Source: a virus. From it: DNA of 64,000 nucleotides. Made by a program: the position numbers and the translations under genes. Below, piece by piece: positions 738 through 63,310 of this stretch. The DNA lies in IMG/VR virus record IMGVR_UViG_3300028182_000001, positions 64,001 through 128,000 of that record; one strand, 5' to 3'. The notes under the pieces are model-generated. The model saw only the letters and a program-made list of their open reading frames with translations, was not told the origin of the DNA and did not search any database. How positions within the stretch are numbered: the stretch's first letter is position 1; every line of letters starts with the position of its first letter.

Positions 738-3425
738 ATGGCAAGTGGCGGTTTTGACTTATCGACTAGTAATACCTACGTCAAAGGTAGGGTTAACTGG
801 TCTAGTACGGCAAATACAAATGAAAACTATAGTAATGTGTACGTGGAGATGCGATTCTCCCGTACCAACTCAGGGTATACAACATACGGTAGTGGTACAT
901 TCGGTATTTACGTAGACGGACAAGCAGTAGAGAATACTACAAGCTTCTCAATTACACAGAACTCTAACACACTAGTTGTAAGTGGTACAGTTCGAGTTAA
1001 CCATAATGCTGACGGTACGAAGAACTTTCGTATCGGGGCTAGTGGTTTCACAAACGTATTCAGTATCAACGAAGGTAGTACAACTGCTTATATGGATAAC
1101 ATCCCACGAGCAAGTACTATCTCGTCTAACGTAAGTTGGACCGCAGGAGTTAACAGTTTACCTGTAACGATTAACAGGGCGTCTAGTGCGTTCATCCATT
1201 ACGTAGAGTTACAAGTTAAGAACCCTATTAACGGATCGTGGGCTATTGTAGCTTCACGTTCTAACGTAGGTGACTCTGTAACATTCGATTTCAGTAAAGA
1301 CGAAATAACAAAGATGTACCAACAAATCGTAGCTTACGAGGAAACCCAAGCATGGATGAAAGTTGAGACATGGAACGGTGGAACATTTGTAGGTCGTAAT
1401 GAAAAGTATGGGACTGTATATGCCGCACCTACGGGAACTGCATCATACAACCAATGGGGTTCATTTGATATCGGTCAGAACATTACAGGTTGGGTTAATA
1501 ACCACATAAACGGATTCACTTACAACCTGACAATGAACTTCGGATCATTCTCACGTACTTGGAATAACGTACCTAAGGACTACACTTTATCGTTCTCTGC
1601 TGCCGAGATACAGACACTGTACGGGCAGACATCAACTGCGAATAGCAAGACAGGTACGATTACATGTCGAACACTCTATAACGGAGTGTACGCAGAGGAT
1701 GGGGCACCAGTAAGTAACGTTACTACATTTACACTAAATGTAAAGAGTAGTGACCCGACTTACGCAGGTGGATTTACATACTTAGATACAAACAGTACAA
1801 CTACAACACTAACAGGTAATAACCAATATATCGTACAAGGTAAATCTAAGTTACAGATTAAGTTACCTGCGGCCAATAAAGCTACGGCTAATAATGGGGC
1901 TACAATGTCTCGTTACGATGTTACAGTCAACGGGGTTACGCAGTCTGTTAACTACGCTACGACAGACCTTACGGTTAACTTTAACGAGGTAAACGCATCG
2001 TCAAATGCTACTGCAACAGTTACGGCAGTAGATAGTCGAGGTAACAAAGCATCTGCATCTTCTGTTATATTAATGCTACCTTATTCACCACCTGTTATTT
2101 CAGCTAGTGCGGATCGCTTAAACAACTTCGAGGACTCAACTACGATTAAGTTAAGTGGTTCAATATCTCCATTGACTATCAGCAGTGCGAATAAGAACTC
2201 ACTGACAGTTGTTAAATTCCAAAGAAGACAGGTAGGTGGTACATACGATAGTCCAGGAACTAACTTTACGATTACTGGGAATCCGAACTTCACTGCGACA
2301 GACGTTAAAGTAAACTTAGCTAATACTCTTGCTTGGGAGATTCTAATTACGGCTACGGACAAAGTAGGTTCTACTGTAACGTTAACACGTACGGTTCCAG
2401 TCGGTACTCCAATCTTCTTCATTGATACAGTGAAGAAAACAGTCGGAGTTAATAAGTTCCCTACTAGTGCGGCCAATGGTCTCGAAATAGCAGGTGACTT
2501 GGACGTTGATGGTATAATTAAAGCGAAAGCAGATCAGTGGATGGGTAATAGTAAAGTAGGGTTAGATATGCGTAACTCTGATATGAAAGGGCTAAACGGT
2601 CTATACTTCAATGACGCATCGGAATCAGGTGACGAAGGAATTAACTTCCTACGTTCAGGTAAAAGTGTAGGCTCTACAAATATAGCAGACTACGATAACT
2701 TCTGTCTCTATGACGGTGCATTTAGAATGAACAACCGAAATCTGTTTTGGCAAGAGGGCGGCCAAGCTTCGAACAACATCCGTTTAGCAGGAGATATGTA
2801 CTCACAAACTACAGGTGGGACTATCTTCGATGTATGGGGTAACATTAAAGGTCAGCCAACAGCAACGTCAATCAATACATGGTCAATCCAGGATGCTGAT
2901 GGACAAATTAGATTCCTCTGTGGTATCGGTAAGGGGGCTACAGCGACTACTGAGATTAGGTCGTATAATAGTGGGGGTATTAAGCTAATACATGACAACT
3001 ATTCAGTTGCTTCTTTTTGGCAACAAGGTGGAGGAAATCAACACATTATGCAACTAGGATCAGGTATACTTCAGTATTATAACAACTGGTTCGAATTTAA
3101 GGGACCTGGTAACTCAGGTTGGGGTAATGTGTATGGTAACTGGGTAGCACCTTCGTCAGAAGCTTATAAAAAAGACATCACTGTATTCGATGATAGTGCG
3201 TTATCTTACATACACTCTGTGAAACCTGTACTATACCAATACAAGGAACAAGACGAATCAGAGCCATATACACTAGGTTTAATTGCAGAGGAGTCTCCTG
3301 CAATCATTCAAGGAGCTAACGGTAAAGGTGTTAACGCCTACTCGATGATAACGTTACTTTGGAAAGCCATGCAAGAGATTGACGGAAAAGTAGAAAACAT
3401 TAACAGAAGAATAACACTAAGATAA
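738..3425 (+). CDS. Tail fibre/receptor-binding protein with DUF859-like N-terminus and C-terminal peptidase S74 intramolecular chaperone
   Basis: GGAGG RBS; Thr/Ser/Gly-rich beta repeats; C-terminal SSEAYKKDI...LGLIAEE...LLWKAMQEI coiled-coil end matches the S74 autocleaving chaperone pattern. Confidence 0.85.
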   Translation: MASGGFDLSTSNTYVKGRVNWSSTANTNENYSNVYVEMRFSRTNSGYTTYGSGTFGIYVDGQAVENTTSFSITQNSNTLVVSGTVRVNHNADGTKNFRIGASGFTNVFSINEGSTTAYMDNIPRASTISSNVSWTAGVNSLPVTINRASSAFIHYVELQVKNPINGSWAIVASRSNVGDSVTFDFSKDEITKMYQQIVAYEETQAWMKVETWNGGTFVGRNEKYGTVYAAPTGTASYNQWGSFDIGQNITGWVNNHINGFTYNLTMNFGSFSRTWNNVPKDYTLSFSAAEIQTLYGQTSTANSKTGTITCRTLYNGVYAEDGAPVSNVTTFTLNVKSSDPTYAGGFTYLDTNSTTTTLTGNNQYIVQGKSKLQIKLPAANKATANNGATMSRYDVTVNGVTQSVNYATTDLTVNFNEVNASSNATATVTAVDSRGNKASASSVILMLPYSPPVISASADRLNNFEDSTTIKLSGSISPLTISSANKNSLTVVKFQRRQVGGTYDSPGTNFTITGNPNFTATDVKVNLANTLAWEILITATDKVGSTVTLTRTVPVGTPIFFIDTVKKTVGVNKFPTSAANGLEIAGDLDVDGIIKAKADQWMGNSKVGLDMRNSDMKGLNGLYFNDASESGDEGINFLRSGKSVGSTNIADYDNFCLYDGAFRMNNRNLFWQEGGQASNNIRLAGDMYSQTTGGTIFDVWGNIKGQPTATSINTWSIQDADGQIRFLCGIGKGATATTEIRSYNSGGIKLIHDNYSVASFWQQGGGNQHIMQLGSGILQYYNNWFEFKGPGNSGWGNVYGNWVAPSSEAYKKDITVFDDSALSYIHSVKPVLYQYKEQDESEPYTLGLIAEESPAIIQGANGKGVNAYSMITLLWKAMQEIDGKVENINRRITLR

Positions 3426-3439
3426 GGAGTAAATAACCT

Positions 3440-3955
3440 ATGATATTTGATAACTTACCATTGTACGAGAGAGAACTAATCACAAAAGGTTTCGACAAGA
3501 TGGGGCAAGATTACCAAAACTCACTAATGAATGCTATCTCCCGTAAAACAGGACAAGCATTATGGCAAATCAGACCTGAGGATATCCTGAAGTACCACAA
3601 AGACTTAAAGACATCAATGCACAACGAGTTCTGTGAGTTGGCTATCGCAAGTGGGTTTATCGCTACGAACGGACACAGATACCGTACAAATGCAGACGAC
3701 CAAACGAACTTCCTTGGTAAACTGATTTTCTTAATAATGAAGCCCGAAACTACAGAAGTTGGTTGGAAAGCGGAAGACGTAGGAGACTACGTGATACATA
3801 CAAAAGAAGAGTGGTTACAAGTAGCTCTTGAAGGTTTCGCACATAAAGAGGTGCAACTAACAAAGTTCAACGAGAAGACGAAGACTATCAAAGCTGCTAC
3901 AACGCACGACCAAGTAGTGGCAGTATCTTGGAGTGGAGACGGACCGCACAAATAA
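3440..3955 (+). CDS. DUF4376-like tail fibre assembly/accessory protein
   Basis: GF...GHRY...DDQTN...WKAED pattern; immediately after the tail fibre gene. Confidence 0.55.
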   Translation: MIFDNLPLYERELITKGFDKMGQDYQNSLMNAISRKTGQALWQIRPEDILKYHKDLKTSMHNEFCELAIASGFIATNGHRYRTNADDQTNFLGKLIFLIMKPETTEVGWKAEDVGDYVIHTKEEWLQVALEGFAHKEVQLTKFNEKTKTIKAATTHDQVVAVSWSGDGPHK

Positions 3956-3976
3956 TAGAAACTAATAGGAGGAAAT

Positions 3977-4171
3977 ATGATGGAACAACAACCACAAGGT
4001 AAACCGATTAATCCGAAACACATCGTCAATGAACAGAAGGTAGTCATCTTCGACCTAATGAATGAGAACATCATGCTTAAAGCGTACGTAGCTCAGTTAG
4101 AAGAGAGTGCGGCTAAACTAGCAGAGGAGCTATCTGAGAGAGATATCGACAACGAACCACGAGAGGACTAA
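3977..4171 (+). CDS. Small coiled-coil hypothetical protein (tail region)
   Basis: AGGAGG RBS, 64 aa, operon position. Confidence 0.7.
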   Translation: MMEQQPQGKPINPKHIVNEQKVVIFDLMNENIMLKAYVAQLEESAAKLAEELSERDIDNEPRED

Positions 4172-4189
4172 ATAAGGGGGGAGTAGACT

Positions 4190-4675
4190 ATGACAAATGA
4201 ACCGATCCAATCGGCAGATGTCATATTCTATAGACCTAAGAGTTTCATAGGCTGGGTGATTAGTAAAGTTACTAACTCACCCTATAGTCATGTTGCCCTT
4301 GCTATCGACTCTAACACATTGATAGAAGCCAACAGGTTCATAAAAACAAGAGTCGTACCTATAGAGTATGACAATAAAATCACACACATTTATCGACTAG
4401 ATAATGTGACACAAGAAGAAAGAGATAGAATCGTATCTATCGCATTAAGTTACGAAGGTACGGACTATGACTACGCTCAAATATTCGAGATGTTTGTACG
4501 GATCGTATTTCGTATTAAACGTACTCTATTTAACAACCAACAGAAACTGACATGTTCTGAGGTAGTGGATAATGCTTTCTACAAAGCAGGAGTTAAACGT
4601 AAAGACCTAGAGTTCTTATACGATATCACCCCTGAAGAGTTATTGCATAAATACTCACTACATAGAGTCCTTTAA
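4190..4675 (+). CDS. Permuted papain-like NlpC/P60 amidase (YiiX/YebB family)
   Basis: ADVIF...YSHVAL (His) preceding YDY...LTCSE (Cys) and ITPEEL; permuted order of catalytic residues. Confidence 0.8.
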   Translation: MTNEPIQSADVIFYRPKSFIGWVISKVTNSPYSHVALAIDSNTLIEANRFIKTRVVPIEYDNKITHIYRLDNVTQEERDRIVSIALSYEGTDYDYAQIFEMFVRIVFRIKRTLFNNQQKLTCSEVVDNAFYKAGVKRKDLEFLYDITPEELLHKYSLHRVL

Positions 4676-4700
4676 GCCGAGGTTTCCCTCGGCTTTTCTT
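4674..4700 (+). terminator. Intrinsic terminator
   Basis: AAGCCGAGG-tttc-CCTCGGCTT followed by TTCTT. Confidence 0.85.
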
Positions 4701-4726
4701 ATATTATAAAAGAGAGGTGATAATAC

Positions 4727-5554
4727 ATGGGAATGTCAGATGGTAAAACAGTATTAACGAAGATTGCTTTCCAAGTAGGAAACCGATTCTTCCGCTTCGC
4801 TATCAACCCTGAGAACATGACTTTTGCTCGGCCGCACCGTACTACGGCACTTAAAACAAAAAGTAGGATCGTAATTGAGGACTTCCAAAGTGACATACCT
4901 ACTTACACGATTAGTGGTACAACAGGATTCAACCCCACAGGTAAAGCGTCCGACCGAGGAATTGCAAAGATAAAAGAAATGAAATCTTTCTTAGAAGACT
5001 ATGCAGAGACTGGTGGTAACGGTAAGAAATCCGCAGACGATTTTTACTTCCACAACTTTACAAACGATGAGAGCTTTATCGTCCACTTAGCTCCCGAGGG
5101 AGTTACATATACGCAAGACGTGAACGCCCCACTAATGTATCGTTACGAGATTAAATTCGTAGTACTTAGAAAGTCTACCGATCCTGCCGATGACGATGTG
5201 GTGGCACCTGAGATTGGTAATAGGTATCCAACTGTAGGTGGCGGTGGAAGTAGTAGCTCAGGAGGAAATCCTAACCAACGTCCTGACACAGATATAAACA
5301 TTGGTGGTGGGGGTCTTGTATGGAGACCTAGCCCGTTATTCCCTCCACTAGGTGGTAACTCAGGTTCAGGAAACGGAGGTAAGTACGATCCTAGTTCAGG
5401 TAATGACGACATCTACAACAAAGGTGACGGAGGTAACTACGTTCCAGGAACAGGTCGTGACCCAGTTAACCCACAAAGACCTTCAGGTGTATCTTATGAC
5501 TACGGTATGAGTGGACTAGGGTACAACATCGGTTATTACGGAAGGTGGTATTAA
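4727..5554 (+). CDS. Conserved virion/baseplate-region protein with Gly-rich C-terminal tail
   Basis: GAGGTG RBS; FAINPENM...TISGTTG tail-tube-initiator-like N-terminus; G/S/N/P low-complexity C-terminus. Confidence 0.6.
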   Translation: MGMSDGKTVLTKIAFQVGNRFFRFAINPENMTFARPHRTTALKTKSRIVIEDFQSDIPTYTISGTTGFNPTGKASDRGIAKIKEMKSFLEDYAETGGNGKKSADDFYFHNFTNDESFIVHLAPEGVTYTQDVNAPLMYRYEIKFVVLRKSTDPADDDVVAPEIGNRYPTVGGGGSSSSGGNPNQRPDTDINIGGGGLVWRPSPLFPPLGGNSGSGNGGKYDPSSGNDDIYNKGDGGNYVPGTGRDPVNPQRPSGVSYDYGMSGLGYNIGYYGRWY

Positions 5555-5558
5555 GAAC

Positions 5559-6083
5559 ATGACAATTAGAAAGCCGTTAGACCTTATCAGATTCGTCTCT
5601 AGCGTCCCTGTTCTTCCCGATGGTACTATCCCATTAAACGAGATGGGAACAACGGTACAGTACACGTCTACGCTTTACACACCATCGTTCAGTGTATCAG
5701 CATTAGCAAGACTGACGTTAGAAGATATCCAACGAAATAAAATTGAACTGATTAACGTTCCACTAGACCCGAGAACAATCGTATCTCAAGTTATGAATAG
5801 TGATTTAGCTACGTATAACCCTCGTGTGTACGTTCTAGTGTGTGCCGTAGTGCTAGAGTCTTTTGCCCTTCTATATAACCTAGAGGAGCGTAATACGAAC
5901 ATTCAGTACGTAACAAAGAAAGATATCTTGAAGATGAAACAGAACGTAAACTATATCGCAGACTACTTCGGTACCGAGAGAAAGTACCGTACGATGATTG
6001 AGACATTACGAGATATAGATATTTCAATTGGTTACTTAGAGAACCAAGTAGAGTCGGCTATGAATAAATGGGTGGTGAGATAA
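5559..6083 (+). CDS. Hypothetical baseplate-region protein
   Basis: 174 aa ORF tightly packed in the baseplate operon. Confidence 0.65.
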   Translation: MTIRKPLDLIRFVSSVPVLPDGTIPLNEMGTTVQYTSTLYTPSFSVSALARLTLEDIQRNKIELINVPLDPRTIVSQVMNSDLATYNPRVYVLVCAVVLESFALLYNLEERNTNIQYVTKKDILKMKQNVNYIADYFGTERKYRTMIETLRDIDISIGYLENQVESAMNKWVVR

Positions 6084-6832
6084 TGGCTAAGTTTAAAAGA
6101 CGTATCATCGCAGAGGGAGATACGATGCAAGCTATAGCTCAACAAGAGTTAGGGGATGTAAGTCGTTGGATAGAGCTAGTAAGATTTAATGATCTACGAC
6201 ACCCGTACATCGTAGACACTGTAGCAGAGAAGTTAACAAACCCAAACCATCTTCTAACTATCGGTGATACTCTACTAATCGAGATGTCGGAAAATTCACA
6301 AAATGAATTAATGAACGCATTGAAACGTACAACAGATTTCGATAAAGAGGAGTTATACGCACTAGCTCTAGGGAAAGATTTAGATGTTCTACCAATCCCT
6401 AAACCGTTCGGTAAAGCAGGTTGGGACTCAGACATTCTTGAAATGAAGGATGACGGACGAGGAGATATCGCTACGATCCGTGGAGTAGAGAACTTAAAAC
6501 AATCTCTATTCATTCGTCTTATCACTCCACTAGGAAGCTACATCGGTTATCCGAGGTACGGTTCTAAAGTCCATGAATACTTAGGACGTAAGAACACAGA
6601 GGAGAATGCTGCTCTACTAGACATTGAAATCGAGAGAACATTACGTACGGATGGTAGAGTACGAACAGTAGAGAAGGTTGGGCACGTTATTGATGGTAAC
6701 TCGTACTCAACTACTTTCAAAGTCTTCTCTATCGCAATGGAAGAAGCATTCCTACTAGCCCTTTCAGGTGAGTTAGGAAAAGAAGGCTCGTTAGTCCTTC
6801 AAGATAACTTCGTAGATAACATGATACGATAA
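6083..6832 (+). CDS. Baseplate wedge protein (LysM-like N-terminus plus gp25-like domain)
   Basis: GDTMQAIAQQELGD..W..L...N LysM-like motif; NLKQSL..RL.TPLGS...YP.YGS gp25 motif; ATG at 6083 overlaps the upstream TAA and follows GGTGGTGA. Confidence 0.8.
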   Translation: MAKFKRRIIAEGDTMQAIAQQELGDVSRWIELVRFNDLRHPYIVDTVAEKLTNPNHLLTIGDTLLIEMSENSQNELMNALKRTTDFDKEELYALALGKDLDVLPIPKPFGKAGWDSDILEMKDDGRGDIATIRGVENLKQSLFIRLITPLGSYIGYPRYGSKVHEYLGRKNTEENAALLDIEIERTLRTDGRVRTVEKVGHVIDGNSYSTTFKVFSIAMEEAFLLALSGELGKEGSLVLQDNFVDNMIR

Positions 6833-6845
6833 GGAGGTTTACCCA

Positions 6846-7892
6846 TTGAGATACAAACAAATGACAGAAATCTATGGACGATTAGTAGACCATACGATTA
6901 CAAATACAAATAAGATTAATGACTTCTCTATCGGTAGCGCAATCAGAGCAATCTACGAAGCTACTGCTAGGGAGATTGAGCAGTTATACATCCTAACGGA
7001 AGAGAACATTAGAGAAGCTATTGCAACAGGTGTATACTCTTCATTCGGGTTCCAACGTAAACCTGCACAACGAGCTTACGGTAAAGTGCAGTTGGTCTTC
7101 CACAATGCCGTACAACAGACTTTACCTCTTCCAAGAGGTACAAGGTTCACTTCTAGTTTATCGGACTACACGATGACGTATGAGACGGTAGAAGACTACT
7201 ATATCCCACAAGGTACAGTTACTGCCGAAGTACAAATCTACTGCACGATTACAGGAGAGATTGGTAACGTACCGAACAACGTAATTAACATTATGATGAC
7301 TCCTCTAGCGAACATCAAGACAGTTACGAATGCACAAGCTTTCCAAACAGGTCAAGATGAGGAACCGTTAGAAGAATTAAAGTCTCGTTTCCGTTCTTAC
7401 ATTGAATCTCTAAGCAAAGGAACAATTCCTGCACTAGAGTACGGCACACGTTCCGTAATAGAGATTTCAGGTGTATGGATTGATGAGCAGACAGGTATTG
7501 TTTACGTATACGCACACGACCGCAACGGAGACCTACCTGATGTTGTAAGAGATAAAGTCATCGCTACACTTCAGAACTACCGAGCAGCAGGAATCCCAGT
7601 TGTCGTTCGACCTGTAACACGTAAAGCAGTTAACATTGATGTTACAATAGTACTAACAGATAAGACTGCTATTACAAAGGCACTACAAGATAAGATAGTA
7701 GCCGAGATTTCGAGATACCTTAACAACATGCAGACTTCACAAAGCGTAATCCTATCTGACCTATCTAGTGTTATTAAAGGGATAGATAGACGATTAATCT
7801 ACGACATTACATTTAACGATCCGAAAGCAAATGTAATCGTAGCAGGTAATGAAGTTGTTCGTGCAGGTACAGTTAAGGTTACTCTAACATAG
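6846..7892 (+). CDS. Baseplate J-like protein
   Basis: TTG start with AAGGAGG; DFSIGS, G.IGNV, GQDEE..EELKSRF...LSKGT, YRAAGI motifs. Confidence 0.9.
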   Translation: MRYKQMTEIYGRLVDHTITNTNKINDFSIGSAIRAIYEATAREIEQLYILTEENIREAIATGVYSSFGFQRKPAQRAYGKVQLVFHNAVQQTLPLPRGTRFTSSLSDYTMTYETVEDYYIPQGTVTAEVQIYCTITGEIGNVPNNVINIMMTPLANIKTVTNAQAFQTGQDEEPLEELKSRFRSYIESLSKGTIPALEYGTRSVIEISGVWIDEQTGIVYVYAHDRNGDLPDVVRDKVIATLQNYRAAGIPVVVRPVTRKAVNIDVTIVLTDKTAITKALQDKIVAEISRYLNNMQTSQSVILSDLSSVIKGIDRRLIYDITFNDPKANVIVAGNEVVRAGTVKVTLT

Positions 7893-7902
7893 GAGGTACA
7901 TT

Positions 7903-34625: not shown

Positions 34626-35648
34626 ATGGACGAACTAAGAGTAGTAGAACTGTTTGCAGGATACGGTAGCCAATCAATGGCACTGAAACGAGCAAACATC
34701 AATTATAAAACTGTAGCGATTGCAGAGATTGATAAGGACGCACTGGTTTCTTATGAAGCAATCCACGGCAAACCAAATAACCTTGGAGACATTACCAAGG
34801 TAAGAGGAGAAGACGTTCCTGACCACGACTTCATGACGTATTCATTCCCTTGTACAGACATCTCTGTATCAGGTGCGATGAAAGGTCTATTGGAAGGTTC
34901 AGGTACAAGCTCTAGTACGTTATGGGATGTAAAGAGAGTAATAGAAGCGAAGAAACCTAGATTCCTAATGATGGAAAACGTAGACAACCTTGTTATCAAA
35001 TTCATGGACGACTACCTACTATGGTTAAAGTACCTAGAATCACAAGGGTATGCTACATCGTGGAAAGTTATTGACGCATCTCCTTACGTACCACAAAGAC
35101 GTAAACGTGTTATAGCAATCTCTCGATTAGATGGACAGGCATTCCCGTTCCCTGAAGACCCTACGGAGCGTACATATGATTTAATAGACGTGCTAGAGGA
35201 GTTCGATGATGCAGAAGCATTAGAGAGCTTTAAAGACCCTACAGTGCGAAGTGCTACAGTAGACCCTGTTACATATTATAACCCGAATTCAGATTACTAT
35301 AAACTGCAACCTGAGAATAGTAGAGCATCATTCATTGGATACATAGGGAACCAACCGAAACAGGCTACACGAGTATATGAACCTATCACGGCTTCAACGT
35401 TGACTGCTAATGGTGGCGGCCAAGGTGGGAAGACAGGTCTGTATCACCTAGGTACGCATATCCGAAATCTTAGTCCGTTAGAAGCGTGGCGCATCATGGG
35501 TGTGAGTGACGAGGACTTCTACAAGGCAAAAGCAACAGGTATCAAGAAGACCCAACTACTACGTCAAGCAGGGAACTCTATCGTAGTTGATATCATGGTA
35601 CCAATATTTGAAAAGCTCTTTAAAGATTATATGAAGGAGACAAAATAA
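34626..35648 (+). CDS. DNA (cytosine-5) methyltransferase 1
   Basis: ELFAGYGS (I), SFPC (IV), MENV (VI), PQRRKR (VIII), variable region, R.LSPLEAWRIMG (IX), QAGNSI (X). Confidence 0.93.
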   Translation: MDELRVVELFAGYGSQSMALKRANINYKTVAIAEIDKDALVSYEAIHGKPNNLGDITKVRGEDVPDHDFMTYSFPCTDISVSGAMKGLLEGSGTSSSTLWDVKRVIEAKKPRFLMMENVDNLVIKFMDDYLLWLKYLESQGYATSWKVIDASPYVPQRRKRVIAISRLDGQAFPFPEDPTERTYDLIDVLEEFDDAEALESFKDPTVRSATVDPVTYYNPNSDYYKLQPENSRASFIGYIGNQPKQATRVYEPITASTLTANGGGQGGKTGLYHLGTHIRNLSPLEAWRIMGVSDEDFYKAKATGIKKTQLLRQAGNSIVVDIMVPIFEKLFKDYMKETK

Positions 35649-35649: not shown

Positions 35650-36315
35650 ATGACAAAGAAGAAACTAAAAGTACTAGAATTATTTGCTGGCACGAGGTCA
35701 GTAGGTAAAGCATTCGAAGCACAGGGACACGAGGTATATAGTGTTGAGTGGGATCAGAAACATCCAGGAATCCATTGGTACGCAGATATATCGAAAATCA
35801 CTGCACAGGAAATCATCGAACGCTTTGGTAAACCTGATATCATTTGGGCTAGTCCTGATTGTACAAGCTACTCAGTAGCAGGTATCTCGCATCACCGTAG
35901 AAAGGATGACGATGGTAACTTACGTCCTATTAGTGAGTATGCCCAATTCTGCGACACTACAAACCAACACGTAGTAGATTTAATTCGAGAACTTCAACCG
36001 AAGTACTACTTCATTGAGAATCCTCGTGGTGGAATGAGAAAGATGAACTTCATGCAGGATGACGCATTACCGAATGGTGGTAAACGTTACACAGTTACAT
36101 ATTGCCAGTACGGGGACACTCGTATGAAGCCAACTGACTTATGGACTAACCATCCTGAGCCGAAGTTTAAAGAGCCTTGTAAAAATGGTATGCCTTGTCA
36201 CGTAGCTGCCCCTCGTGGAAGCGCAACAGGTACACAAGGTATAAAAGGGTCTGTAGACCGTTCACGCATCCCTGAGGAGCTATGCAACCACGTAGCGAAG
36301 ATTTCTGAAGAGTAA
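35650..36315 (+). CDS. Short DNA (cytosine-5) methyltransferase-like protein 2
   Basis: ELFAGTRS (I), WASPDC (IV), IENP (VI), YCQYG...KPT, C-terminal RSRIP; only 221 aa. Confidence 0.8.
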   Translation: MTKKKLKVLELFAGTRSVGKAFEAQGHEVYSVEWDQKHPGIHWYADISKITAQEIIERFGKPDIIWASPDCTSYSVAGISHHRRKDDDGNLRPISEYAQFCDTTNQHVVDLIRELQPKYYFIENPRGGMRKMNFMQDDALPNGGKRYTVTYCQYGDTRMKPTDLWTNHPEPKFKEPCKNGMPCHVAAPRGSATGTQGIKGSVDRSRIPEELCNHVAKISEE

Positions 36316-44927: not shown

Positions 44928-45227
44928 ATGGAAGACAATAAACAACAAGTATTTGTGCCTGTAGAGGTGCCAAAGGTTGAGCCAATGATGATTGTGCGTT
45001 TACTTGTGTTCGTACTTGCATTAGTGAATGCAGTTGGAGCTATGTTCGGTTACGACTTGAACCTGTCAGTGGACCAGCAAAACGTGTATGATATCGTATC
45101 TGCATTGTTCTTACTGGGATCAGGATTCCACGTAGCATGGAAGAACAACAACATCTCGAAGACCTCTCGTGTGAAAGCACATGTCGGAGAGCAAGTAACA
45201 GTTGATACGAAAGGGGAACAGAAATAA
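44928..45227 (+). CDS. Holin (SPP1-family-like)
   Basis: Two TM helices, IVRLLVFVLALVN and AWKNNNIS motif; start could be 44919. Confidence 0.75.
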   Translation: MEDNKQQVFVPVEVPKVEPMMIVRLLVFVLALVNAVGAMFGYDLNLSVDQQNVYDIVSALFLLGSGFHVAWKNNNISKTSRVKAHVGEQVTVDTKGEQK

Positions 45228-49549: not shown

Positions 49550-50065
49550 ATGTTTTACATGAAATTAGATTACGGATCAGGAAGACAACCAAAGCAAGGA
49601 TTCAAGTCATCGGACTTTATCGGTACACCGTGTTACGACTTCTACATCAAGGATTACAGAGTACTAGACTTAGCAGATAATACGTGCGATGTTATTCATT
49701 GCCGTAACGTGATTCACCACATTCCAAAGGAAGACTTACCGATCCTATTCGGAGAGTTCAAGCGTTTATTAAAGCCAGGTGGACAATTAATCATCTCAGA
49801 GCCACGAGAAGAGTTCCACGAACAAAACTTATTGCTGGACCTTATTTGGTACCGTTGGGTGAACTACGATACAAACATTATGATTCCTTACGAGTATGTA
49901 AACTATAAGAAGTATCTAACGGACTTCACGCTGCTTGATACAGTGGATGAGTATAACAACGAGATTCTTACATACGTAGTAAATAAACCAGTACAAAAAA
50001 TTACACGTAGAACAGGAGTGTTAGTATGGTCATCGAACTCAAAACGATCTCTTATTACGAACTAG
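49550..50065 (+). CDS. Class I SAM-dependent methyltransferase (Methyltransf_11-like)
   Basis: LDYGSG, D.IHCRNVIHHI, RLLKPGG.LII.EP motifs. Confidence 0.8.
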   Translation: MFYMKLDYGSGRQPKQGFKSSDFIGTPCYDFYIKDYRVLDLADNTCDVIHCRNVIHHIPKEDLPILFGEFKRLLKPGGQLIISEPREEFHEQNLLLDLIWYRWVNYDTNIMIPYEYVNYKKYLTDFTLLDTVDEYNNEILTYVVNKPVQKITRRTGVLVWSSNSKRSLITN

Positions 50066-55106: not shown

Positions 55107-55128
55107 TAGTTTACTAGGAGGGAAAGTT

Positions 55129-55587: not shown

Positions 55588-55588
55588 T

Positions 55589-56241: not shown

Positions 56242-56440
56242 ATTCGGAGGTATTTTTCAAATTACTGCTACTTTTCTTTTAGGATGCACAATCACATTTA
56301 ATTTATGTGTAGGAGCACCTGTACTTGGATGGGTATACATTGTCTTTGTAGTCAGTTTCATTTGGATGCTAGTAGGTAATCCAACGTTCACAGAGAGGTT
56401 CCCATACTTTAAAAACTTACTGAAACGTAAGGGGGAATAA
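56231..56440 (+). CDS. Small membrane protein (2 TM)
   Basis: AAGGAGG RBS before ATG 56231. Confidence 0.65.
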   Translation: MLDKFGGIFQITATFLLGCTITFNLCVGAPVLGWVYIVFVVSFIWMLVGNPTFTERFPYFKNLLKRKGE

Positions 56441-56442
56441 AC

Positions 56443-57195
56443 TTGGGGAGATGGAAAGATAGAGTTTGGTTCCATAAGTCTAAGGAGACGACAGGTATTC
56501 GTTGCTGGTTACACTGGGGAGAAGCAGTATGGCACTACGAAGGATATACCTTTAAGAACGCAAACAAGTTAGGTATTAGTATGGACGTAGGTGGCGATGA
56601 AAATGATATCTCCCTCGGTGTCGGTATTAAAGGACTATTCACAATGTACTTTGGTGTTGACGGATTACTACCTCGTAAGTGGAAGTACAAACATCTACCT
56701 GATACTCGTAACTACGGTATTAGTGCGTTTGATGACTACATAAGCATCGAGTTCCACCGAGACGACTACGGTTATGGTAAAGGGTGGAGAGGGTTCCACA
56801 AGATGATTAACTGGAAAGACATCCTCTTTGGTAAAGCTAAGTACACAGAAGAAGAAATACATACAATGCGAGGGTACGTTAGAATGCCTGAAGGTGACTA
56901 TGCGGCCACGATCCGAGCTTACAACGCCACATGGACTCGTAAACGCTTTGTAGACCCTATGACCATCACTCGTTACGAGATTACACCTGATACACCTATC
57001 CCTGAACCAGGTAAAGGGGAGAACGGTTGGGATCAAGAGGACGATGCTACATTCTGTACGACTATCAGAGCAGATAGTGTATCCGATGCACTATTCCGTA
57101 TGGCACAAAGTATTATGCGTACACGGGAAAACAGAGAAGGTAAGAACTGGGTACCTGACGCAGGATTCTCGGACAAGCTAAACCAACCATTGTAA
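56443..57195 (+). CDS. Hypothetical aromatic-rich protein
   Basis: TTG start, AGGGGG RBS, 250 aa; PGKGENGWD motif. Confidence 0.65.
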   Translation: MGRWKDRVWFHKSKETTGIRCWLHWGEAVWHYEGYTFKNANKLGISMDVGGDENDISLGVGIKGLFTMYFGVDGLLPRKWKYKHLPDTRNYGISAFDDYISIEFHRDDYGYGKGWRGFHKMINWKDILFGKAKYTEEEIHTMRGYVRMPEGDYAATIRAYNATWTRKRFVDPMTITRYEITPDTPIPEPGKGENGWDQEDDATFCTTIRADSVSDALFRMAQSIMRTRENREGKNWVPDAGFSDKLNQPL

Positions 57196-57201
57196 AAAGG
57201 A

Positions 57202-57229
57202 GAGAATGCTATAACAGGCATTCTCTTTT
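57202..57229 (+). terminator. Intrinsic terminator
   Basis: GAGAATGC-tataacag-GCATTCTC followed by TTTT. Confidence 0.7.
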
Positions 57230-57249
57230 CGTTAGAGAGGGGATACATA

Positions 57250-57966
57250 ATGAAACGATTTTATGAACAAGATATAAAAGACCTTATCCTAGAGAAGCAA
57301 CATCTATTCGTGTCGAATACAGACTCATCTACAGTTGTATTCGAGAAAGGGATTGTAATTGGTTCTACGATTGCAGACTGTTTGATATTCTCACGAGAGA
57401 AAGGTATAATCGGTATAGAGATTAAAACAGAGAGGGATTCAACACGTAGGTTAAATAGTCAGTTAAAGAACTATAGTCTTGTATGTGATTGGGTTTATGT
57501 TATGTGCCATGATAACCATGTAGAGAAGGTGGAAGATATTCTAACTAAAAATGGTTATCATCATGTAGGTATCCTAGCATATACTGAGTTTAGAGGGGTA
57601 GCAATTCTAGGTGAGTATAGAACTCCTAAGCGATCCCCATACAAGAAAGTAAGTGTAGCGTATCAGATGCTATGGAAAGAAGAGATTAACAATATCCTCG
57701 GGAGCTTTAAAAGACAGGTGAAGACGTTAGAAGAGTTTGGAATGAAAGTGGATACAGCCGAGAGTAGGTCAGGAGGATTGAACGGTCTCTATGTACAGTC
57801 AAATGCTTCTAAGAAGTATCTAAAGAAGTCTGATATGATTAACATGATTATAGGAAGACTTGGTGAGACACAAGCAAATACATTGCTCTGTAACATCTTT
57901 ATATCAGGTAAAATGCACCCCGATAAACAATTGTCCTTCCACCACTTCAAAAGAAAAGATATATGA
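57250..57966 (+). CDS. PD-(D/E)XK nuclease-like protein (sce7726-like)
   Basis: FE......IADCL...GIEIKTERDS..RL..QL..Y...D.VYV. Confidence 0.75.
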   Translation: MKRFYEQDIKDLILEKQHLFVSNTDSSTVVFEKGIVIGSTIADCLIFSREKGIIGIEIKTERDSTRRLNSQLKNYSLVCDWVYVMCHDNHVEKVEDILTKNGYHHVGILAYTEFRGVAILGEYRTPKRSPYKKVSVAYQMLWKEEINNILGSFKRQVKTLEEFGMKVDTAESRSGGLNGLYVQSNASKKYLKKSDMINMIIGRLGETQANTLLCNIFISGKMHPDKQLSFHHFKRKDI

Positions 57967-58004
57967 TACAATAGAGAGGAGAATAAACGTAAAGGGGAAT
58001 TGTT

Positions 58005-58775
58005 ATGGCAAAGAAAATTGAAGCGGTAGAACGAGTAGGTACAGTAGGGGTAAATAGTCACGGGTCACGGATGGTAGTAGTATGGTACGAGAACAGTAAG
58101 AAAGTTATCGTACAGTTTGAGCAAGGTAACGTTGTACAAACTAGTTGGCAGCTGTTCATCAAAGGATCAGTAAAGAATCCGTACGACAAAACACTTCTTG
58201 GTGTAGGATACATGGGGTTAGGCCGCTATAGCTCTAAGACGGAGGATGGAGAAGATAACCCCATCTATTACACTTGGCTTCGTATGATGAGACGTTGTTA
58301 CGATGAGAATACACACAAAAGACAACCTGCGTATATTAACTGTATAGTTGATCCTGATTGGCACAACTTCCAAAACTTTGCAAAGTGGTACGAGGAAAAC
58401 TATTATGAGGTTGACGGAGAGACTATGTGCCTTGACAAAGATATACGTATTAAAGGTAATAAAGTATACTCACCTGATACATGTATCTTTGCTCCGACTC
58501 TCATTAATAACCTGTTTATAACAAACGATAGTAGAAGAGGGGAGCTACCTGTAGGAGTCGTATACGATAAGAAACACGACAAATACATAGCGCAATATAG
58601 AACTCCTCAAGGTAAACATTGGATAGGAAGATTCAAAACGGCAGAAGAAGCTTTCCTTGCTTATAAAGAGTTTAAGGAAGTTTATATAAAGAAGGTTGCA
58701 GAGGAATATAAGGGTAAAATACCACATACACTCTACAATATAATGATGACGTACAAGATAGAGATGACTGACTAA
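58005..58775 (+). mobile_element. Free-standing HNH-type homing endonuclease with AP2-like C-terminus, copy A
   Basis: W..MMRRCY, WHNFQNF, CLDKD...KGNKVYSP..C.F....IN, LPVGV, IGRF.T.EEAFLAYK. Confidence 0.8.
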
Positions 58776-58815
58776 CTTTCCATCATTTTAGAAAAAAGTA
58801 AGAAAAAAGTGGAAA

Positions 58816-58954
58816 TAGACTTCTAAAAGTATGTATGATATCATAAAGATAGGAGTATACTATAACTACAAAGTTATCGGATATACTCCTTTCCTCCTTA
58901 CATCGGAGGTTGGAGTAGAGACAGGAGACAACTAAATCTAAGGAGGAATTTATA
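58816..58954 (+). promoter_or_regulatory. sigmaA promoter plus ~105 nt structured 5' leader with anti-Shine-Dalgarno
   Basis: TAGACT-17-TATCAT with TG; hairpin 58851-58890; TTCCTCCTTA (58891-58900) is the exact reverse complement of the RBS TAAGGAGGAA (58939-58948). Confidence 0.7.
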
Positions 58955-59506
58955 ATGACAGTTAAACAGTTAAGCTTAGTAAAATATGCAGGTGAATATT
59001 TTTGCACATTGGCAGACTATACGGAAACAAGAAGCACAGAGGGTTACTCAGATAGCGCATCGGTAAAATCAGCAGTTAGAACATTCGTAGTGAAATCAGA
59101 TGCAACAAAATATATCTCTTTTAGAGGGGAAGCACAATTAAAGAATATCATCCAAGAGAATAAAGATAACCCTCACTTCCACGAAGAAGACTTCCGAGGG
59201 ACTAGAATGGGTATCATCGCTTGGGATATGTTAGAGCCTTTAAATAACCGTTTCAAAGAGAATAAAGAATATAAAAAAGCATTTGCTCAGTTCATGAAAG
59301 AAGCTAATGATTATATAGAAGGACAACAAAGTAAAGAATCTTCAGATGCTAATGAAACTAACGACCCTACAGAGAGTCGTGCTATAGTAATACGTACATT
59401 ACGATCCGAGTTAAACCGAGTTGATAAAGAGATAGAAGTTCGTCAAATAAATAGAGAAAAGATTCTTCAGGCTATTAACGCATTGGAGAGTTTAGAAGTC
59501 GAATAA
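58955..59506 (+). CDS. Hypothetical protein, possible antirepressor-like DNA-binding N-terminus plus coiled coil
   Basis: LVKYAGEYFCTLADY start resembles ORF6N/Bro-N-like domains (weak); C-terminal heptads. Confidence 0.55.
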   Translation: MTVKQLSLVKYAGEYFCTLADYTETRSTEGYSDSASVKSAVRTFVVKSDATKYISFRGEAQLKNIIQENKDNPHFHEEDFRGTRMGIIAWDMLEPLNNRFKENKEYKKAFAQFMKEANDYIEGQQSKESSDANETNDPTESRAIVIRTLRSELNRVDKEIEVRQINREKILQAINALESLEVE

Positions 59507-59544
59507 AAGTAAAAGATTATGGTATAATTGAATAGTTACAGAAT

Positions 59545-59575
59545 AGGGTTGCATTTTATGGTGCAACCCTTTATT
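59545..59575 (+). terminator. Hairpin/terminator
   Basis: AGGGTTGCA-ttttatgg-TGCAACCCT followed by TTATT. Confidence 0.65.
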
Positions 59576-59610
59576 ATATTACTTATAGAGGGAGTTAAAG
59601 GAGGGTTACA

Positions 59611-60381
59611 GTGGTAGCTAAAAAAGGATTGAAGGACGAGAAGGTTGGCGTTAAAGTAGTTAGTACAGAAGGTTATACAATGGAGTGCGTTGACTACAAT
59701 TCGTATACTGATATCACCGTTCGATTTGAAGATGGTCACGAAGTTAAATCTACTTGGCATAACTTCACGAAAGGAAGTATCAAGAACGTATATCACAAGT
59801 CTGTATATGGTGTTGGTTACATAGGTGAAGGTGACTACTCTTCAAAAGGTTACAGGACTCCGAAGTTTCCTATGTATCGGTCTTGGATATCTATGATGCG
59901 AAGATGTTACAGTGATACAGATAATCCTAGAGATAGAGCATATAAACAATGTAGCGTTAACTCTATATGGCATAATTTTCAGAACTTCTGTCTATGGTAT
60001 GAGTATAATTACTATGAGATAGAAGGAGAGACTATGTGTCTCGATAAAGATATACTGGTTAAAGGTAACAAAACATATGCACCGAAGACTGCTGTGTTTG
60101 TTCCTGAGTCAATTAACAAACTGTTCCTAACACGTAAGGACAAGAGAGGTCACTTACCTATAGGTGTGTACGAGAGACCAAATGGAAAGTTTGGAGCTTA
60201 CCTGAGTAAGGGTGATAAGAGAGTACATCTAGGGTATTTCGGTATACCTCATGAAGCTTTCCTAGCCTACAAAGAAGCGAAGGAACAGCACATAAAGGAA
60301 GTAGCAGAAAAGTACAAGCACCATATTCCTATCAAGTTATATGACGCATTACTACGTTATGAGGTAGAGATGGATGACTAG
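59611..60381 (+). mobile_element. Free-standing HNH-type homing endonuclease with AP2-like C-terminus, copy B
   Basis: Same motif set as copy A; also 256 aa; GTG start with AAGGAGG. Confidence 0.8.
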
Positions 60382-60913
60382 AAAGAAGACAGGTAAACCG
60401 AACTCTGTAACCCGATCAATAGCTAGGGGTGCCGCTGCTCGGGGAGACGGAGTTAATGGTGTTCACGAAAACGGGAAAGATGCCTATAAGCGCTCTAGGC
60501 AAAGCACAAAAGGTAACTATCGTATAGCGTTCACCGAACTATTCGAGAAGGTTACAGAGCGTGATTTAAGCCTTAAACATACATATGCAAAAGATTTACT
60601 CTCTAACTACCTGAAAGTCCCTGTAGATATGATTACATTAAAGGTAAAGAGGAAGCCACAACAGACTCTAACCAGCGTAGACGAAGTATTCTATGTGAAA
60701 GTAGGATCGGATATCTACGGTAAAGTATCTATACGGGTTCAACGTGTATTAAGAGGTAACATGCTTATATTCGTCTTCCAAGAGAAGAAGGCTGCGCTTA
60801 AACCACCTACTAAGTCTTACAGCAGGAAGACTGGATTCAAGAAGAAAACATCCAGTCAAATAAGTCAGACGAAACGAAAGTCTTACCATTCACGACAAGG
60901 AGGAACAAATTAA
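60374..60913 (+). CDS. Basic hypothetical protein
   Basis: GAGGT RBS, K/R-rich termini. Confidence 0.7.
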   Translation: MTRKKTGKPNSVTRSIARGAAARGDGVNGVHENGKDAYKRSRQSTKGNYRIAFTELFEKVTERDLSLKHTYAKDLLSNYLKVPVDMITLKVKRKPQQTLTSVDEVFYVKVGSDIYGKVSIRVQRVLRGNMLIFVFQEKKAALKPPTKSYSRKTGFKKKTSSQISQTKRKSYHSRQGGTN

Positions 60914-61767
60914 TGCAGATTCCAAACTTACCAACAAAACAAGGTTCACTAGAAATGTTACAAGGGCTGTTAAAGGATAAACGAAAGAGTGTATACGGTG
61001 TATTCTATACGAATGATTACTTCAGTCAACGTTACCTTTGCCGTAACCACGTATTAGCCGATGAGGTGAACATTGAAGACAAGACAGTTAAACTAAAGAT
61101 TGCTACACGAGTAGAGCACGCAGGTCTATGGGAACTAGAGAATACGTTAGATGCTTTAGTTCATTTCGAAGCAGGAGACATTCCTGGATACGATTATACA
61201 GACGAGAACGCTACGATCCCTACAGTACCTGAACCGATATCTGTAGTAAAGAGTCTATTCAGTATCGACCTAGTATTGATTATGAAAGAACCGTCAATTA
61301 CATACCAATCATTCGAAATTGCGGGAGCTAAATTCCTGTTAATGAATATCCATCTTGTACTAGAGGATAGCGAAGGAGACTTTGAACAACAAGTTACACT
61401 ATTGTTCGGGGACTCAGGAAAGTTAAGCTTATTCTCTCACTTCTACGACAAGGAACTAGAGTATGAGGATATCCGTACGCTGCTACATCTAATCATGGAT
61501 AAGAACATCACAGGTAAAGCTATCCTAGGTGTGCAGTCTATCAGTAAATCAGGAGCGATGTGTTCACTAAGTCCTGATAACGAGCAGATTAGTTCATGGG
61601 TGACAGCAGAAGACCAGTATACATTCGGTTCAGGTCTAAGCTTCATTAGTATCCCTTACATGACACTGAAGACATATAAGCTAAAGCTTGATTCAAGTAT
61701 CACGATGGGGTACCATTTAGAACTAACAAACGATGAGCATAAATTAGAAATCTTCATGGAGAACTAG
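60913..61767 (+). CDS. Hypothetical protein
   Basis: AAGGAGG RBS, 284 aa. Confidence 0.7.
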   Translation: MQIPNLPTKQGSLEMLQGLLKDKRKSVYGVFYTNDYFSQRYLCRNHVLADEVNIEDKTVKLKIATRVEHAGLWELENTLDALVHFEAGDIPGYDYTDENATIPTVPEPISVVKSLFSIDLVLIMKEPSITYQSFEIAGAKFLLMNIHLVLEDSEGDFEQQVTLLFGDSGKLSLFSHFYDKELEYEDIRTLLHLIMDKNITGKAILGVQSISKSGAMCSLSPDNEQISSWVTAEDQYTFGSGLSFISIPYMTLKTYKLKLDSSITMGYHLELTNDEHKLEIFMEN

Positions 61768-61788
61768 GGACTATCCCTAGTTTTTCTT
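61762..61788 (+). terminator. Intrinsic terminator
   Basis: AACTAGGGA-cta-TCCCTAGTT followed by T-run. Confidence 0.8.
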
Positions 61789-62093
61789 TATATTTACGAT
61801 CCTACAGAGCCATTTTAAGTAGAAAAAAGTACACTACTTAGTACAGTTAAATTTGGGGTTCTAAACTGATTTTTCGGTACCAATCGTAAACGACCTGATT
61901 TCGTACAAGATATTCCACATTCTTAAACGATAAAAAAGTATACAACGTAGTGGAACTTTTAAACTATTTACGAAAAAGTTTAAAATTCACTGTATGATTT
62001 ACTATATTATACGTAGACGTTGATACAACAGTATTCGAGGGACAATTTCCCCTATTTAAGATGTGAATATATTCGAAAGGGTTGGGATTTAAA

Positions 62094-62816
62094 ATGGCAG
62101 GAAACGATAAAAAGAAATTAGGATCAAGTAGTGTATTAGTGCAGTTGTATAAGAATAAAAAGTTATGTACGAAAGTAGATAACATGCTAGATGAGGGACT
62201 AACATACGACTATATCATAGAGTTCTGTAACGATAATGACTTCAGTATTTCGAAAGCTTCATTAACAAACTACAAAAAGAAACGTGAAGAAGCAATCGAA
62301 AAAGGAGTACCACTACTTCAGTTACTGGACAAGCGTGCAAAGGATAACGTCACATACATTTCAGATAAACAAGTAAATGAATTTTGGAAGTCACCTGAAG
62401 ACGGATCGGAAGAGTCTATGTCAGTTGCTTCAGTTACAGACATGACTAAAGTAGGTACAATCTTTAACGATTTAGAACTACTAGATGAGATTATTAAAAA
62501 GGGTGCAAAAGGGTTACAGGCTTTTGACGTGGTGGATACACCGTTGGCGATGAAAGCTATCGAACTGAAAGCAAAGATTACGAATAACCAATTATCAGGT
62601 CTATCTATTGCAGGTCTACGTGAGATTAAATTACGTCAAACTGCAAAAGAAACGGCAATGATGCAAGTCATCATGAGTTACGTTTCCGAAGATAAGCATG
62701 ACCAGTTATTTGAAGACTTAGACCTTGCGGAGAAAGAGTTCTACGAGAACTTAGACCTTACTGAGGAAGACAAACGTATCAGTAAAGCACTTGAATCTGC
62801 TGGTCTAGGAATATAA
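62094..62816 (+). CDS. HTH protein, DUF3486/Mu-gp27-like (possible terminase small subunit)
   Basis: VDNMLDEGLTYDYIIEFC....FSISKASLTNYKK HTH followed by a helical oligomerisation-like region. Confidence 0.5.
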   Translation: MAGNDKKKLGSSSVLVQLYKNKKLCTKVDNMLDEGLTYDYIIEFCNDNDFSISKASLTNYKKKREEAIEKGVPLLQLLDKRAKDNVTYISDKQVNEFWKSPEDGSEESMSVASVTDMTKVGTIFNDLELLDEIIKKGAKGLQAFDVVDTPLAMKAIELKAKITNNQLSGLSIAGLREIKLRQTAKETAMMQVIMSYVSEDKHDQLFEDLDLAEKEFYENLDLTEEDKRISKALESAGLGI

Positions 62817-62830
62817 GGAGGGAATAGCCA

Positions 62831-63310
62831 ATGAGTGGAGTAGTTGATGTTACACAGTATGAGAAGATTGACTACGTGGCGTACACATCGTTACGTGATA
62901 AGTTAGAAGCGCTTCTGAGGGGAGAGGTGCTTCTTGTTAAAAACTTCGAGCGCAGAATGAATCTTGATGTACTCATTCGAGTAGTGGATAAACGATTCAC
63001 TGTAACGCAGATGACGTACGATATCGTAGAAGACCCAAGCAATGCGAGATACTGGGTTACATTTAATGTAGGGATCAATGACTTATCGTTATTCTCTGTC
63101 TTCAAATTCGAGGATAAAATCTTCAGTTATACGAATAAGTTCAGAATAGACGACCGAGTGGATTACATTAGTGCTACAGGTAAAAAGGACGCGGCCATTG
63201 TAGAAGAAGTATACATATCCAAGACCGATCCTGAAGTGTTTGCTTACAAACTATCCAGGGAAGATAACTTATATGAAGAGAAGGATTTAATCGCAATCCG
63301 TCCTATGTAA
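62831..63310 (+). CDS. Hypothetical protein
   Basis: AAGGAGG RBS, 159 aa. Confidence 0.7.
   Translation: MSGVVDVTQYEKIDYVAYTSLRDKLEALLRGEVLLVKNFERRMNLDVLIRVVDKRFTVTQMTYDIVEDPSNARYWVTFNVGINDLSLFSVFKFEDKIFSYTNKFRIDDRVDYISATGKKDAAIVEEVYISKTDPEVFAYKLSREDNLYEEKDLIAIRPM

Follow-up and report, generated by a model that had tools for sequence, protein, structure and literature searches.

The virus record IMGVR_UViG_3300028182_000001 of IMG/VR is a 158,403-bp genome with direct terminal repeats, and the window analysed here, a stretch of 64,000 nucleotides, comprises its bases 64001-128000. The genome is 84-88 % identical in nucleotide sequence over 10 kb to the Bacillus phages BM15/Hobo, Deep Blue, Bcp1 and JBP901 and, judged from its sequence, is that of a Bcp1/Deep Blue/Bc431v3-like myophage of the Bacillus cereus group (Herelleviridae, Bastillevirinae, Caeruleovirus-type). 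In public runs the phage sequence was found in soil-metagenome contigs only. The window contains a cassette of two genes for cytosine-5 (C5) DNA methyltransferases, designated P0002 and P0001, which adjoins the DNA polymerase gene directly upstream of it, and it contains the short restriction words GGCC, GGWCC and GATC almost exclusively in a few sequence contexts. This pattern, and its probable origin in methylation by the two enzymes, is the subject of the present text, and the features concerned are listed in Table 1.

Table 1 Methyltransferase genes and surviving restriction sites (window positions unless a locus is named)
Feature	Position	Strand	Remarks
GGCC/GGWCC site set, proposed methylated word GRCCGC	1138..63196	.	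27/27 GGCC and 6/9 GGWCC by exact counts
GGCCGC (13 in window)	4830, 10647, 17095, 17669, 18371, 19890, 20573, 24495, 38987, 45521, 49368, 51904, 58221		
GCGGCC (14 in window)	1869, 2469, 2758, 18453, 27435, 34258, 35416, 38337, 42710, 42800, 54132, 54874, 56902, 63191		
GGACCGC (4 in window)	1138, 3941, 17516, 37921		
GCGGTCC (2 in window)	21512, 25937		
GGWCC exception GGACCTGG	3102..3109	+	Overlaps CCWGG; same class recurs in relatives
GGWCC exception GGACCAGC	45071..45078	+	GGWCCAGC class, most GGWCC exceptions across five genomes
GGWCC exception GCTGGACC (GGTCCAGC on - strand)	49834..49841	-	GGWCC at 49837
Sole CGCG of window, inside CGCGGCC (GGCCGCG on - strand)	63190..63196	-	
P0002, C5 DNA methyltransferase, 340 amino acids, proposed GRCCGC enzyme	34626..35648	+	PF00145 over full length, E 1.4e-51
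P0001, compact C5 methyltransferase-like protein, 221 amino acids, proposed GGATCR enzyme	35650..36315	+	PF00145, N-terminal part, E 3e-8
Third, variable C5 methyltransferase of phage Deep Blue, 419 amino acids	L001:5330-6589		Paralogue, upstream of the 340-amino-acid gene

Words in the window were counted exactly, and genome counts refer to the full 158-kb record. Expected numbers were obtained from a codon-preserving shuffle, in which synonymous codons were permuted inside 230 genes called as open reading frames (300 replicates). Clade counts were made over five Caeruleovirus-type genomes (G000-G003 and W01; 788 kb). Relatives without the methyltransferases were represented by the syntenic ~43 kb of vB_BcgM, Anthony, Abinadi and BCU4, which belong to four other Bastillevirinae genera and have hosts in the B. 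cereus group, and the outgroup consisted of three Agatevirus-like genomes. Scans of IMG/VR yielded few loci outside the Caeruleovirus-type clade.

No GGCC was found outside GGCCGC or its complement GCGGCC among the 27 copies of the window, the 72 of the genome or the 303 of the five genomes, whereas in the shuffled sequences only 13 % of GGCC on average, and 26 % at most, fell inside GGCCGC. GGCCGC and its complement are themselves over-represented, with 72 copies genome-wide versus 9.1 +/- 2.6 after shuffling (z = 24) and 27 in the window versus about 8 expected, so the context pattern is real and lies well past chance. GGWCC behaves similarly, 20 of the 26 genome-wide survivors overlapping CCGC, and its total is itself reduced (26 versus 56 in the shuffle). 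CCGG is absent from window and genome (123 in the shuffle), CGCG occurs once in the window and five times in the genome (130 in the shuffle), and GATC is lowered to 292 from 518. These words lie below the codon-preserving expectation to an extent that marks restriction-site avoidance. A first-pass annotation of the window had arrived by eye at the same GGCC, GGWCC, CCGG and CGCG tallies and at an excess of GGCCGC over base composition, and exact counting bore out these numbers together with every site position that it had quoted. It had also noted that the single CGCG of the window overlaps GCGG; the site does not speak for protection by CCGC methylation, as the orthologous sites in four relatives carry a T and read ATGCGGCC, without CGCG, and the site looks like a recent lineage-specific change. 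Most GGWCC copies outside GGACCGC, both in the window and in the relatives, belong to GGWCCAGC or GGWCCTGG (14 and 5 copies in the five genomes, respectively), which hints at an additional protective context, though the genome has just two methyltransferases.

A second footprint of the same kind is present at GATC. In the five genomes 92 % of GATC lies in GGATC/GATCC, versus 27 % in controls, and GGATCR accounts for 268-298 of the about 300 GATC per genome (268 of 292 in the studied genome) and for 99 of the 109 in the window (YGATCC on the other strand), e.g. at 1234, 1543 and 2112. Across the five genomes AGATCR and YGATCR are reduced 12- to 20-fold and RGATCY is practically absent; GGATCC and TGATCA are absent from the studied genome. 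The few CGCG that survive in the five genomes are GGATCGCG in 27 of 32 cases, from which the modified base is taken to be the C of GGATC (m5CGCG), where m5C is 5-methylcytosine. GGATCR is therefore proposed as a second methylase word, probably marked at its single C. A single motif uniting both footprints, GGAYC(R), was considered and rejected, because GGACC requires a following GC while GGATC requires just R.

The word behind the first footprint was read from the contexts of the survivors. The first-pass annotation had proposed that one phage enzyme of AciI type methylates every CCGC/GCGG, so that GGCC and GGWCC survive at any overlap with that 4-mer. The overlaps counted above, complete for GGCC, fit this proposal, which shares with a GRCCGC model the base taken to be methylated, the first C of CCGC. 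A CCGC enzyme should, however, make GGTCCGC as safe as GGACCGC, and HGCCGC as safe from GCNGC-type cleavage as GGCCGC. The ratio of GGACCGC to GGTCCGC is instead 89:1 in the five genomes versus 7:11, or about 1:1, in controls, that of GACCGC to GTCCGC is 198:6 versus about 80:104, and 72 of the 99 GCCGC/GCGGC (GCSGC) words of the genome are GGCCGC, as opposed to an expected share of about 22 %. Sorted by the preceding dinucleotide, CCGC occurs 60.6 times per genome after GG and 39.6 times after GA, both at or above control levels, whereas after other dinucleotides it is mostly 2- to 26-fold less frequent than in the relatives without methyltransferases (least so after TG and CT, about 1.6-fold). 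Equal safety of all sites that overlap CCGC was not found in these survivor ratios, which test it indirectly, and methylation of every CCGC is unlikely. The best-fitting recognition word, as far as survivor contexts tell, would be GRCCGC, that is GGCCGC plus GACCGC; the idea of a phage methylation footprint with protection of overlapping sites was retained from the first-pass annotation, and its 4-mer was revised to this 6-mer. GTCCGC/GCGGAC was observed to be nearly eliminated from the five genomes (6 copies in 788 kb, versus 198 GACCGC) and to be as common as GACCGC in the relatives without methyltransferases and in the outgroup.

The methylated base can be narrowed down from the flanks of GGCCGC, which show no preference at the 5' base and A, T or C, almost never G, at the 3' base. 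GGCCGCG makes up only 2 of 303 GGCCGC, while G follows GGATCGC in 24 % of cases in the five genomes. Since CGCG is tolerated in GGATCGCG but not in GGCCGCG, the CpG cytosine of GGCCGC appears to be unmethylated, as does its partner on the opposite strand, and by elimination the mark is probably on the first C of CCGC in GRCCGC, which is the inner C of GGCC and GGWCC, as had been supposed at first. The corresponding position, GGm5CC, is the one modified by enzymes of the M.HaeIII type. In GGCCGC the first C of CCGC is also the C of Gm5CNGC, which is where B. cereus carries its cognate GCWGC mark (PMC3526280). One methyl group at this base would consequently block both GGCC- and GCSGC-type enzymes.

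The latter coincidence also allows a different reading, in which a GCNGC or GCSGC methylase of the phi3T/rho11 or NgoFVII type protects GGCCGC and a separate activity protects GGACCGC; specificities of this sort are known in the Bacillus prophage enzymes BAMTA208_6715 and M.BceSV, and Gm5CNGC in GGCCGC is indeed the inner C of GGCC. The words that such an enzyme should shelter are themselves depleted: GCWGC is about 2.7-fold rarer than in the relatives without methyltransferases and 4-fold rarer than in the outgroup, and GCSGC that no G precedes is lowered about 2.6-fold. GGACCGC holds no GCNGC, and the genome has only two methyltransferases, one of which is already needed for the GGATCR footprint. 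GCNGC methylation, which the first-pass annotation had also set aside, is very unlikely.

Avoidance of GCNGC accounts for the excess of GGCCGC. Any Ala-Ala codon pair contains GCNGC, and GCG-GCC and G-GCC-GCN are its sole protected spellings. Ala-Ala pairs underlie 50 of the 72 GGCCGC (28 as GCG-GCC and 22 as xxG-GCC-GCN), and the pair GCG-GCC was observed 28 times versus about 1.3 expected from codon usage, while GCA-GCA was observed 5 times versus 58 in the outgroup. Ala-Ala dipeptides as such are halved in the studied genome. Where GGCCGC is missing from the orthologous position in a relative, GCTGCT, GCTGCC, GCAGCC or GGTCGC usually takes its place. GGCCGC is in these respects a refuge spelling, and its excess is mostly due to Ala-Ala. 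An excess of 8-fold over the codon-preserving shuffle, with about 55 % of the sites conserved among relatives, might otherwise be attributed to positive selection for GGCCGC as a functional signal in the DNA, for instance one that is bound by a phage protein or that acts in recombination as Chi does. The sites show no strand bias (32:40 in the genome; 34 coding versus 36 template), are spaced nearly at random (coefficient of variation 0.88) and turn over freely to synonymous Ala-Ala spellings; the excess that a signal would have to explain is accounted for by Ala-Ala pairs under GCNGC avoidance, and the absence of GGCC outside GGCCGC would be left without a cause. A selected signal is accordingly the least credible of the readings considered, and is extremely improbable.

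Restriction avoidance has left its mark on the proteins. In the predicted proteins of the genome and its relatives, Gly-Pro was counted 2-7 times versus about 100 expected and Trp-Pro 0-1 times versus 18 expected. In the relatives without methyltransferases, Gly-Pro occurs 0 times of about 25 in three of the four and 7 times of 21 in Abinadi, and Pro-Gly is near absent in Anthony and Abinadi.

The tie between the footprints and the cassette was examined by comparison of genomes. P0002 is present in all 21 Caeruleovirus-type records at 86-95 % identity and P0001 likewise at 76-98 %, and both are absent from the three Agatevirus-like outgroup genomes. The cassette was not found between the HU-like gene and the polymerase of vB_BcgM, Anthony, Abinadi or BCU4. 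In the syntenic ~43 kb all four of these genomes contain zero GGCC and zero GGCCGC, and three of the four contain zero GATC and zero GGWCC; the same region of the studied phage has 21 of 21 GGCC in GGCCGC and 71 of 76 GATC in GGATC. The bias was not seen in the four genera that lack the enzymes, and the absence of GGCCGC and GGATC there, together with their presence in the clade that carries the cassette, indicates selection against the unmodified words in this host group. The original suggestion that the survivors are copies shielded by an overlapping phage modification is thus well supported by genome comparison, at the level of sequence.

Alternatively, the phage DNA might not be methylated by phage enzymes at all, if the hosts of this clade had restriction enzymes of extended or context-dependent specificity that spare GGCCGC, GGACCGC and GGATCR. 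The methyltransferase-bearing genomes form one clade and could share a set of hosts, and purging does differ among the genera of the Bastillevirinae, BCU4 tolerating GATC and vB_BcgM and Abinadi tolerating CCGG. Phages of the subfamily from B. cereus, B. thuringiensis, B. anthracis and B. mycoides nevertheless have zero GGCCGC and mostly zero GGATC, and zero GGCCGC was also found in a B. paranthracis siphophage (contig L095), which shows selection against these words within the same host group. Several unrelated host enzymes would all have to spare words that start with GG, and the clade holds exactly the extra genes that fit, two C5 methyltransferases. Host specificity as the sole cause is quite unlikely.

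Purging in these phages extends further. Within the same host group, multi-site purging is extreme in the ~33-kb siphophage represented by the 20.7-kb contig L095, with zero GGCC, GGWCC, CCGG, CGCG and GCSGC, just 3 GCWGC, and CCGC at 1.6 times expectation. Between the five genomes and genomes G005-G007, counts differ for GAGGC/GCCTC (10 versus 416), CGWCG (19 versus 340), CGCCG (14 versus 221), CCCGC (39 versus 241), CTTAAG (1 versus 138), GAGCTC (0 versus 77) and GCAGGC (1 versus 129). The additional purged words probably reflect additional host enzymes. Known restriction enzymes of B. cereus include BceSII (GGWCC) and BceSIV/Bce14579I (GCWGC), with the cognate marks GGWCm5C and Gm5CWGC (PMC3459991, PMC3526280).

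The cassette accounts for all DNA methyltransferases recognised in the genome, PF00145 having two matches and the N6/N4 families PF01555, PF02086, PF05869 and PF02384 none. P0002 matches profile positions 2-324 of PF00145, and the motifs FAGYG, PC, ENV, QRRKR and GNS (motifs I, IV, VI, VIII and X) can be read in its translation, which makes it a full-length C5 methyltransferase. Among enzymes of solved structure it is closest to M.HhaI (1.8e-30, with an alignment that extends through the variable region) and M.MpeI, and its length would leave room for a single specificity. A GCGC or CpG specificity was rejected, since CGCG occurs in CGCGC in only 7 of 32 cases, without enrichment. The nearest P0002 homologue from outside the clade (P0008, 46 % identity) has a different variable region and was not used, and a tandem pair of 345 and 211 amino acids in element L100 is just 29 % identical to P0002. 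P0001 matches profile positions 1-113 only and has the motifs FAGTRS, SPDC (motif IV) and ENPRGG (motif VI), of which SPDC and ENP are invariant across 24 homologues. Its AlphaFold2 model has a predicted local distance difference test score of 76, with low-confidence stretches at 152-159 and 180-204, and resembles the catalytic domains of DNMT3A/B, M.HaeIII and M.HhaI (template modelling score about 0.47-0.5); a classical target-recognition domain was not seen. In its motif IV, PDC replaces PC, and a cluster of Cys and His residues (C177, C183, H184, C212 and H214) is invariant, which is possibly a zinc site standing in for the target-recognition domain.

The P0001 family has >8000 members, 70-85 % identical, in phages, prophages and plasmids of Firmicutes. 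Two distantly related plasmid-like phages, L099 and L101, have a gene of this family without P0002, and GGATC makes up 74 % (p 8e-7) and 96 % (p 4e-10) of their GATC, respectively, where 38 % is expected; rescue of GGCC as GGCCGC was not seen in either (0 of 7 in L099 and 1 of 8 in L101). Weaker GGATC enrichment was found in the P0001-family elements L077, L102 and L103. The L095 siphophage, whose P0001 homologue is 78 % identical, has 0 GGCC and 0 GGCCGC in 20.7 kb, a length that would hold about 8 GGCCGC at the density of the clade. These observations are suggestive, not proof, of a tentative assignment of P0001 to GGATCR and, by elimination, of P0002 to GRCCGC. In another P0001-family phage (L098, a metagenome contig from ENA), GATC is 1.5 times as frequent as expected whatever its context, GGATCC and AGATCT included, and GGCC, CGCG and GCGC are lacking. 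Homologues of both enzymes have generic annotations only; their neighbourhoods are those of orphan methyltransferases of phages or prophages, with no adjacent nuclease, and specificity can therefore not be derived by association. Literature searches returned no account of either footprint or of the specificity of the enzymes.

Some members of the clade have a third C5 methyltransferase. The catalytic core of the Deep Blue paralogue is 57-59 % identical to the 340-amino-acid enzyme and its variable region is longer, and in Bcp1, BM15 and JBP901 a third enzyme of ~330 amino acids is encoded downstream of the 221-amino-acid gene. CCWGG occurs 142 times in Deep Blue versus about 80 times elsewhere; apart from this, differences in word counts between genomes with different third methyltransferases gave nothing clear.

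The following course of events would account for these observations. The hosts would carry enzymes against words of the GGCC, GGWCC, GATC, CGCG, CCGG and GCNGC types, and the phage would have purged these words. Its two orphan C5 methyltransferases would methylate the two asymmetric words, GRCCGC likely at the first C of CCGC and GGATCR at its single C. Wherever the cytosine critical to a restriction site belongs to a methylated word, the site would be at least hemimethylated, and the host enzyme could then not cut it. Shielded copies would be tolerated and all others selected away, leaving GGCC as GGCCGC, GGWCC almost only as GGACCGC, GATC as GGATCR and CGCG as GGATCGCG; under GCNGC avoidance, Ala-Ala would be funnelled into the only protected spellings, GCG-GCC and G-GCC-GCN. 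That two phage orphan C5 methyltransferases marking GRCCGC and GGATCR explain the context-limited survivors is considered probable. The counts and their significance, the confinement of the pattern to the clade and the presence of just two DNA methyltransferases are direct results, while methylation as the shielding agent, the exact words, the marked base and the enzyme responsible for each mark are inferred. The wider proposition is possible and is put forward more tentatively, namely that two small methyltransferases acting on asymmetric 6-bp words, probably on one strand, neutralise at least five classes of host enzyme (GGCC, GGWCC, GCSGC, GATC and CGCG), that this works only through a rewriting of the genome, down to the protein level, which has brought every such site inside a methylated word, and that P0001 is the first characterised member of a very large family of compact GGATC-directed anti-restriction methylases, nearly devoid of a target-recognition domain, in phages and plasmids of Firmicutes.

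Several points weigh against this interpretation. The cassette-bearing genomes are one clade, so that the correlation of cassette and footprint is a single evolutionary event, and some other clade-specific factor could underlie the footprint. The GGWCCAGC exceptions are left without explanation by the two words, and so is the purging of GTCCGC, which is confined to the clade and goes well past what unprotected status requires. The variable region of P0002 resembles those of the CpG methylators M.HhaI and M.MpeI, while the footprint points to a first C that is not in CpG, and P0001 is nearly without a target-recognition domain, which is awkward for a 6-bp specificity. No GGATC bias was present in the P0001-family elements L076, L078, L095 and L100, nor in L091. 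An asymmetric word and one monomeric C5 enzyme would yield hemimethylation only, unless the opposite strand of each word were marked as well, and the blocking of host enzymes by hemimethylation is assumed. The description of Bc431v3 calls the effect of its two C5 methyltransferases unknown (PMC3601020). The same authors reported unexplained poor digestion of the phage DNA (PMC3601020).

If the interpretation is correct, the contexts in which a few restriction sites survive reveal what uncharacterised phage methylases recognise. Two testable words, GRCCGC and GGATCR, are predicted for enzymes found in all Caeruleovirus-type phages, which are candidates for the biocontrol of B. cereus, and with them which restriction enzymes do and do not cut the DNA of these phages. 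The phages would follow a mixed anti-restriction strategy of partial methylation and conditional site avoidance, the cost of which is seen in codon-pair and dipeptide usage. Should the proposed role of P0001 be true, thousands of methylases of Firmicutes mobile elements without an annotated specificity would gain a function.

Orphan methylases and site avoidance are both already known in phages, and the context-limited combination described here is a variant thereof. Multispecific C5 methyltransferases of Bacillus phages have long been represented by those of SPR, phi3T, rho11s and H2. More recent Bacillus examples are M.BceSV/BCE_0393 of B. cereus ATCC 10987 and BAMTA208_6715 (PMC3459991, PMC3526280). 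In these systems orphan, phage-borne C5 enzymes pre-empt host restriction at GGCC, GCNGC, CCGG and GGWCC, and the cassette is proposed to act in a similar way. The multispecific enzymes, however, methylate whole targets in every context by means of several target-recognition modules in proteins of 440-500 amino acids, whereas the two enzymes studied here are much shorter, the larger having a single variable region of HhaI length that aligns one-to-one with M.HhaI, and protection would be confined to asymmetric 6-mers, all other GGCC copies being purged. Compared by word alone, GRCCGC is like the AciI-type CCGC target in being asymmetric, in containing CCGC and in the base that is probably modified, the first C; it differs in its dependence on the dinucleotide 5' of CCGC, GG and GA being tolerated or enriched, GT nearly absent and most others depleted. 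P0002 shares all catalytic motifs with M.HhaI (GCGC) and M.MpeI (CG), and its Gln/Arg loop and Gly-rich loop align with theirs, but methylation of GCGC or CpG would rescue CGCG in CGCGC or everywhere, which is not seen. With the classical restriction-site avoidance of Bacillus phages, of which the relatives without methyltransferases are textbook cases, the clade has in common that short palindromes cut by host enzymes are lost or nearly so. In contrast to those phages, avoidance here is conditional on context and is accompanied by a gain of the protected form, GGCCGC rising from 0 to about 60 copies per genome and GGATCR doubling.

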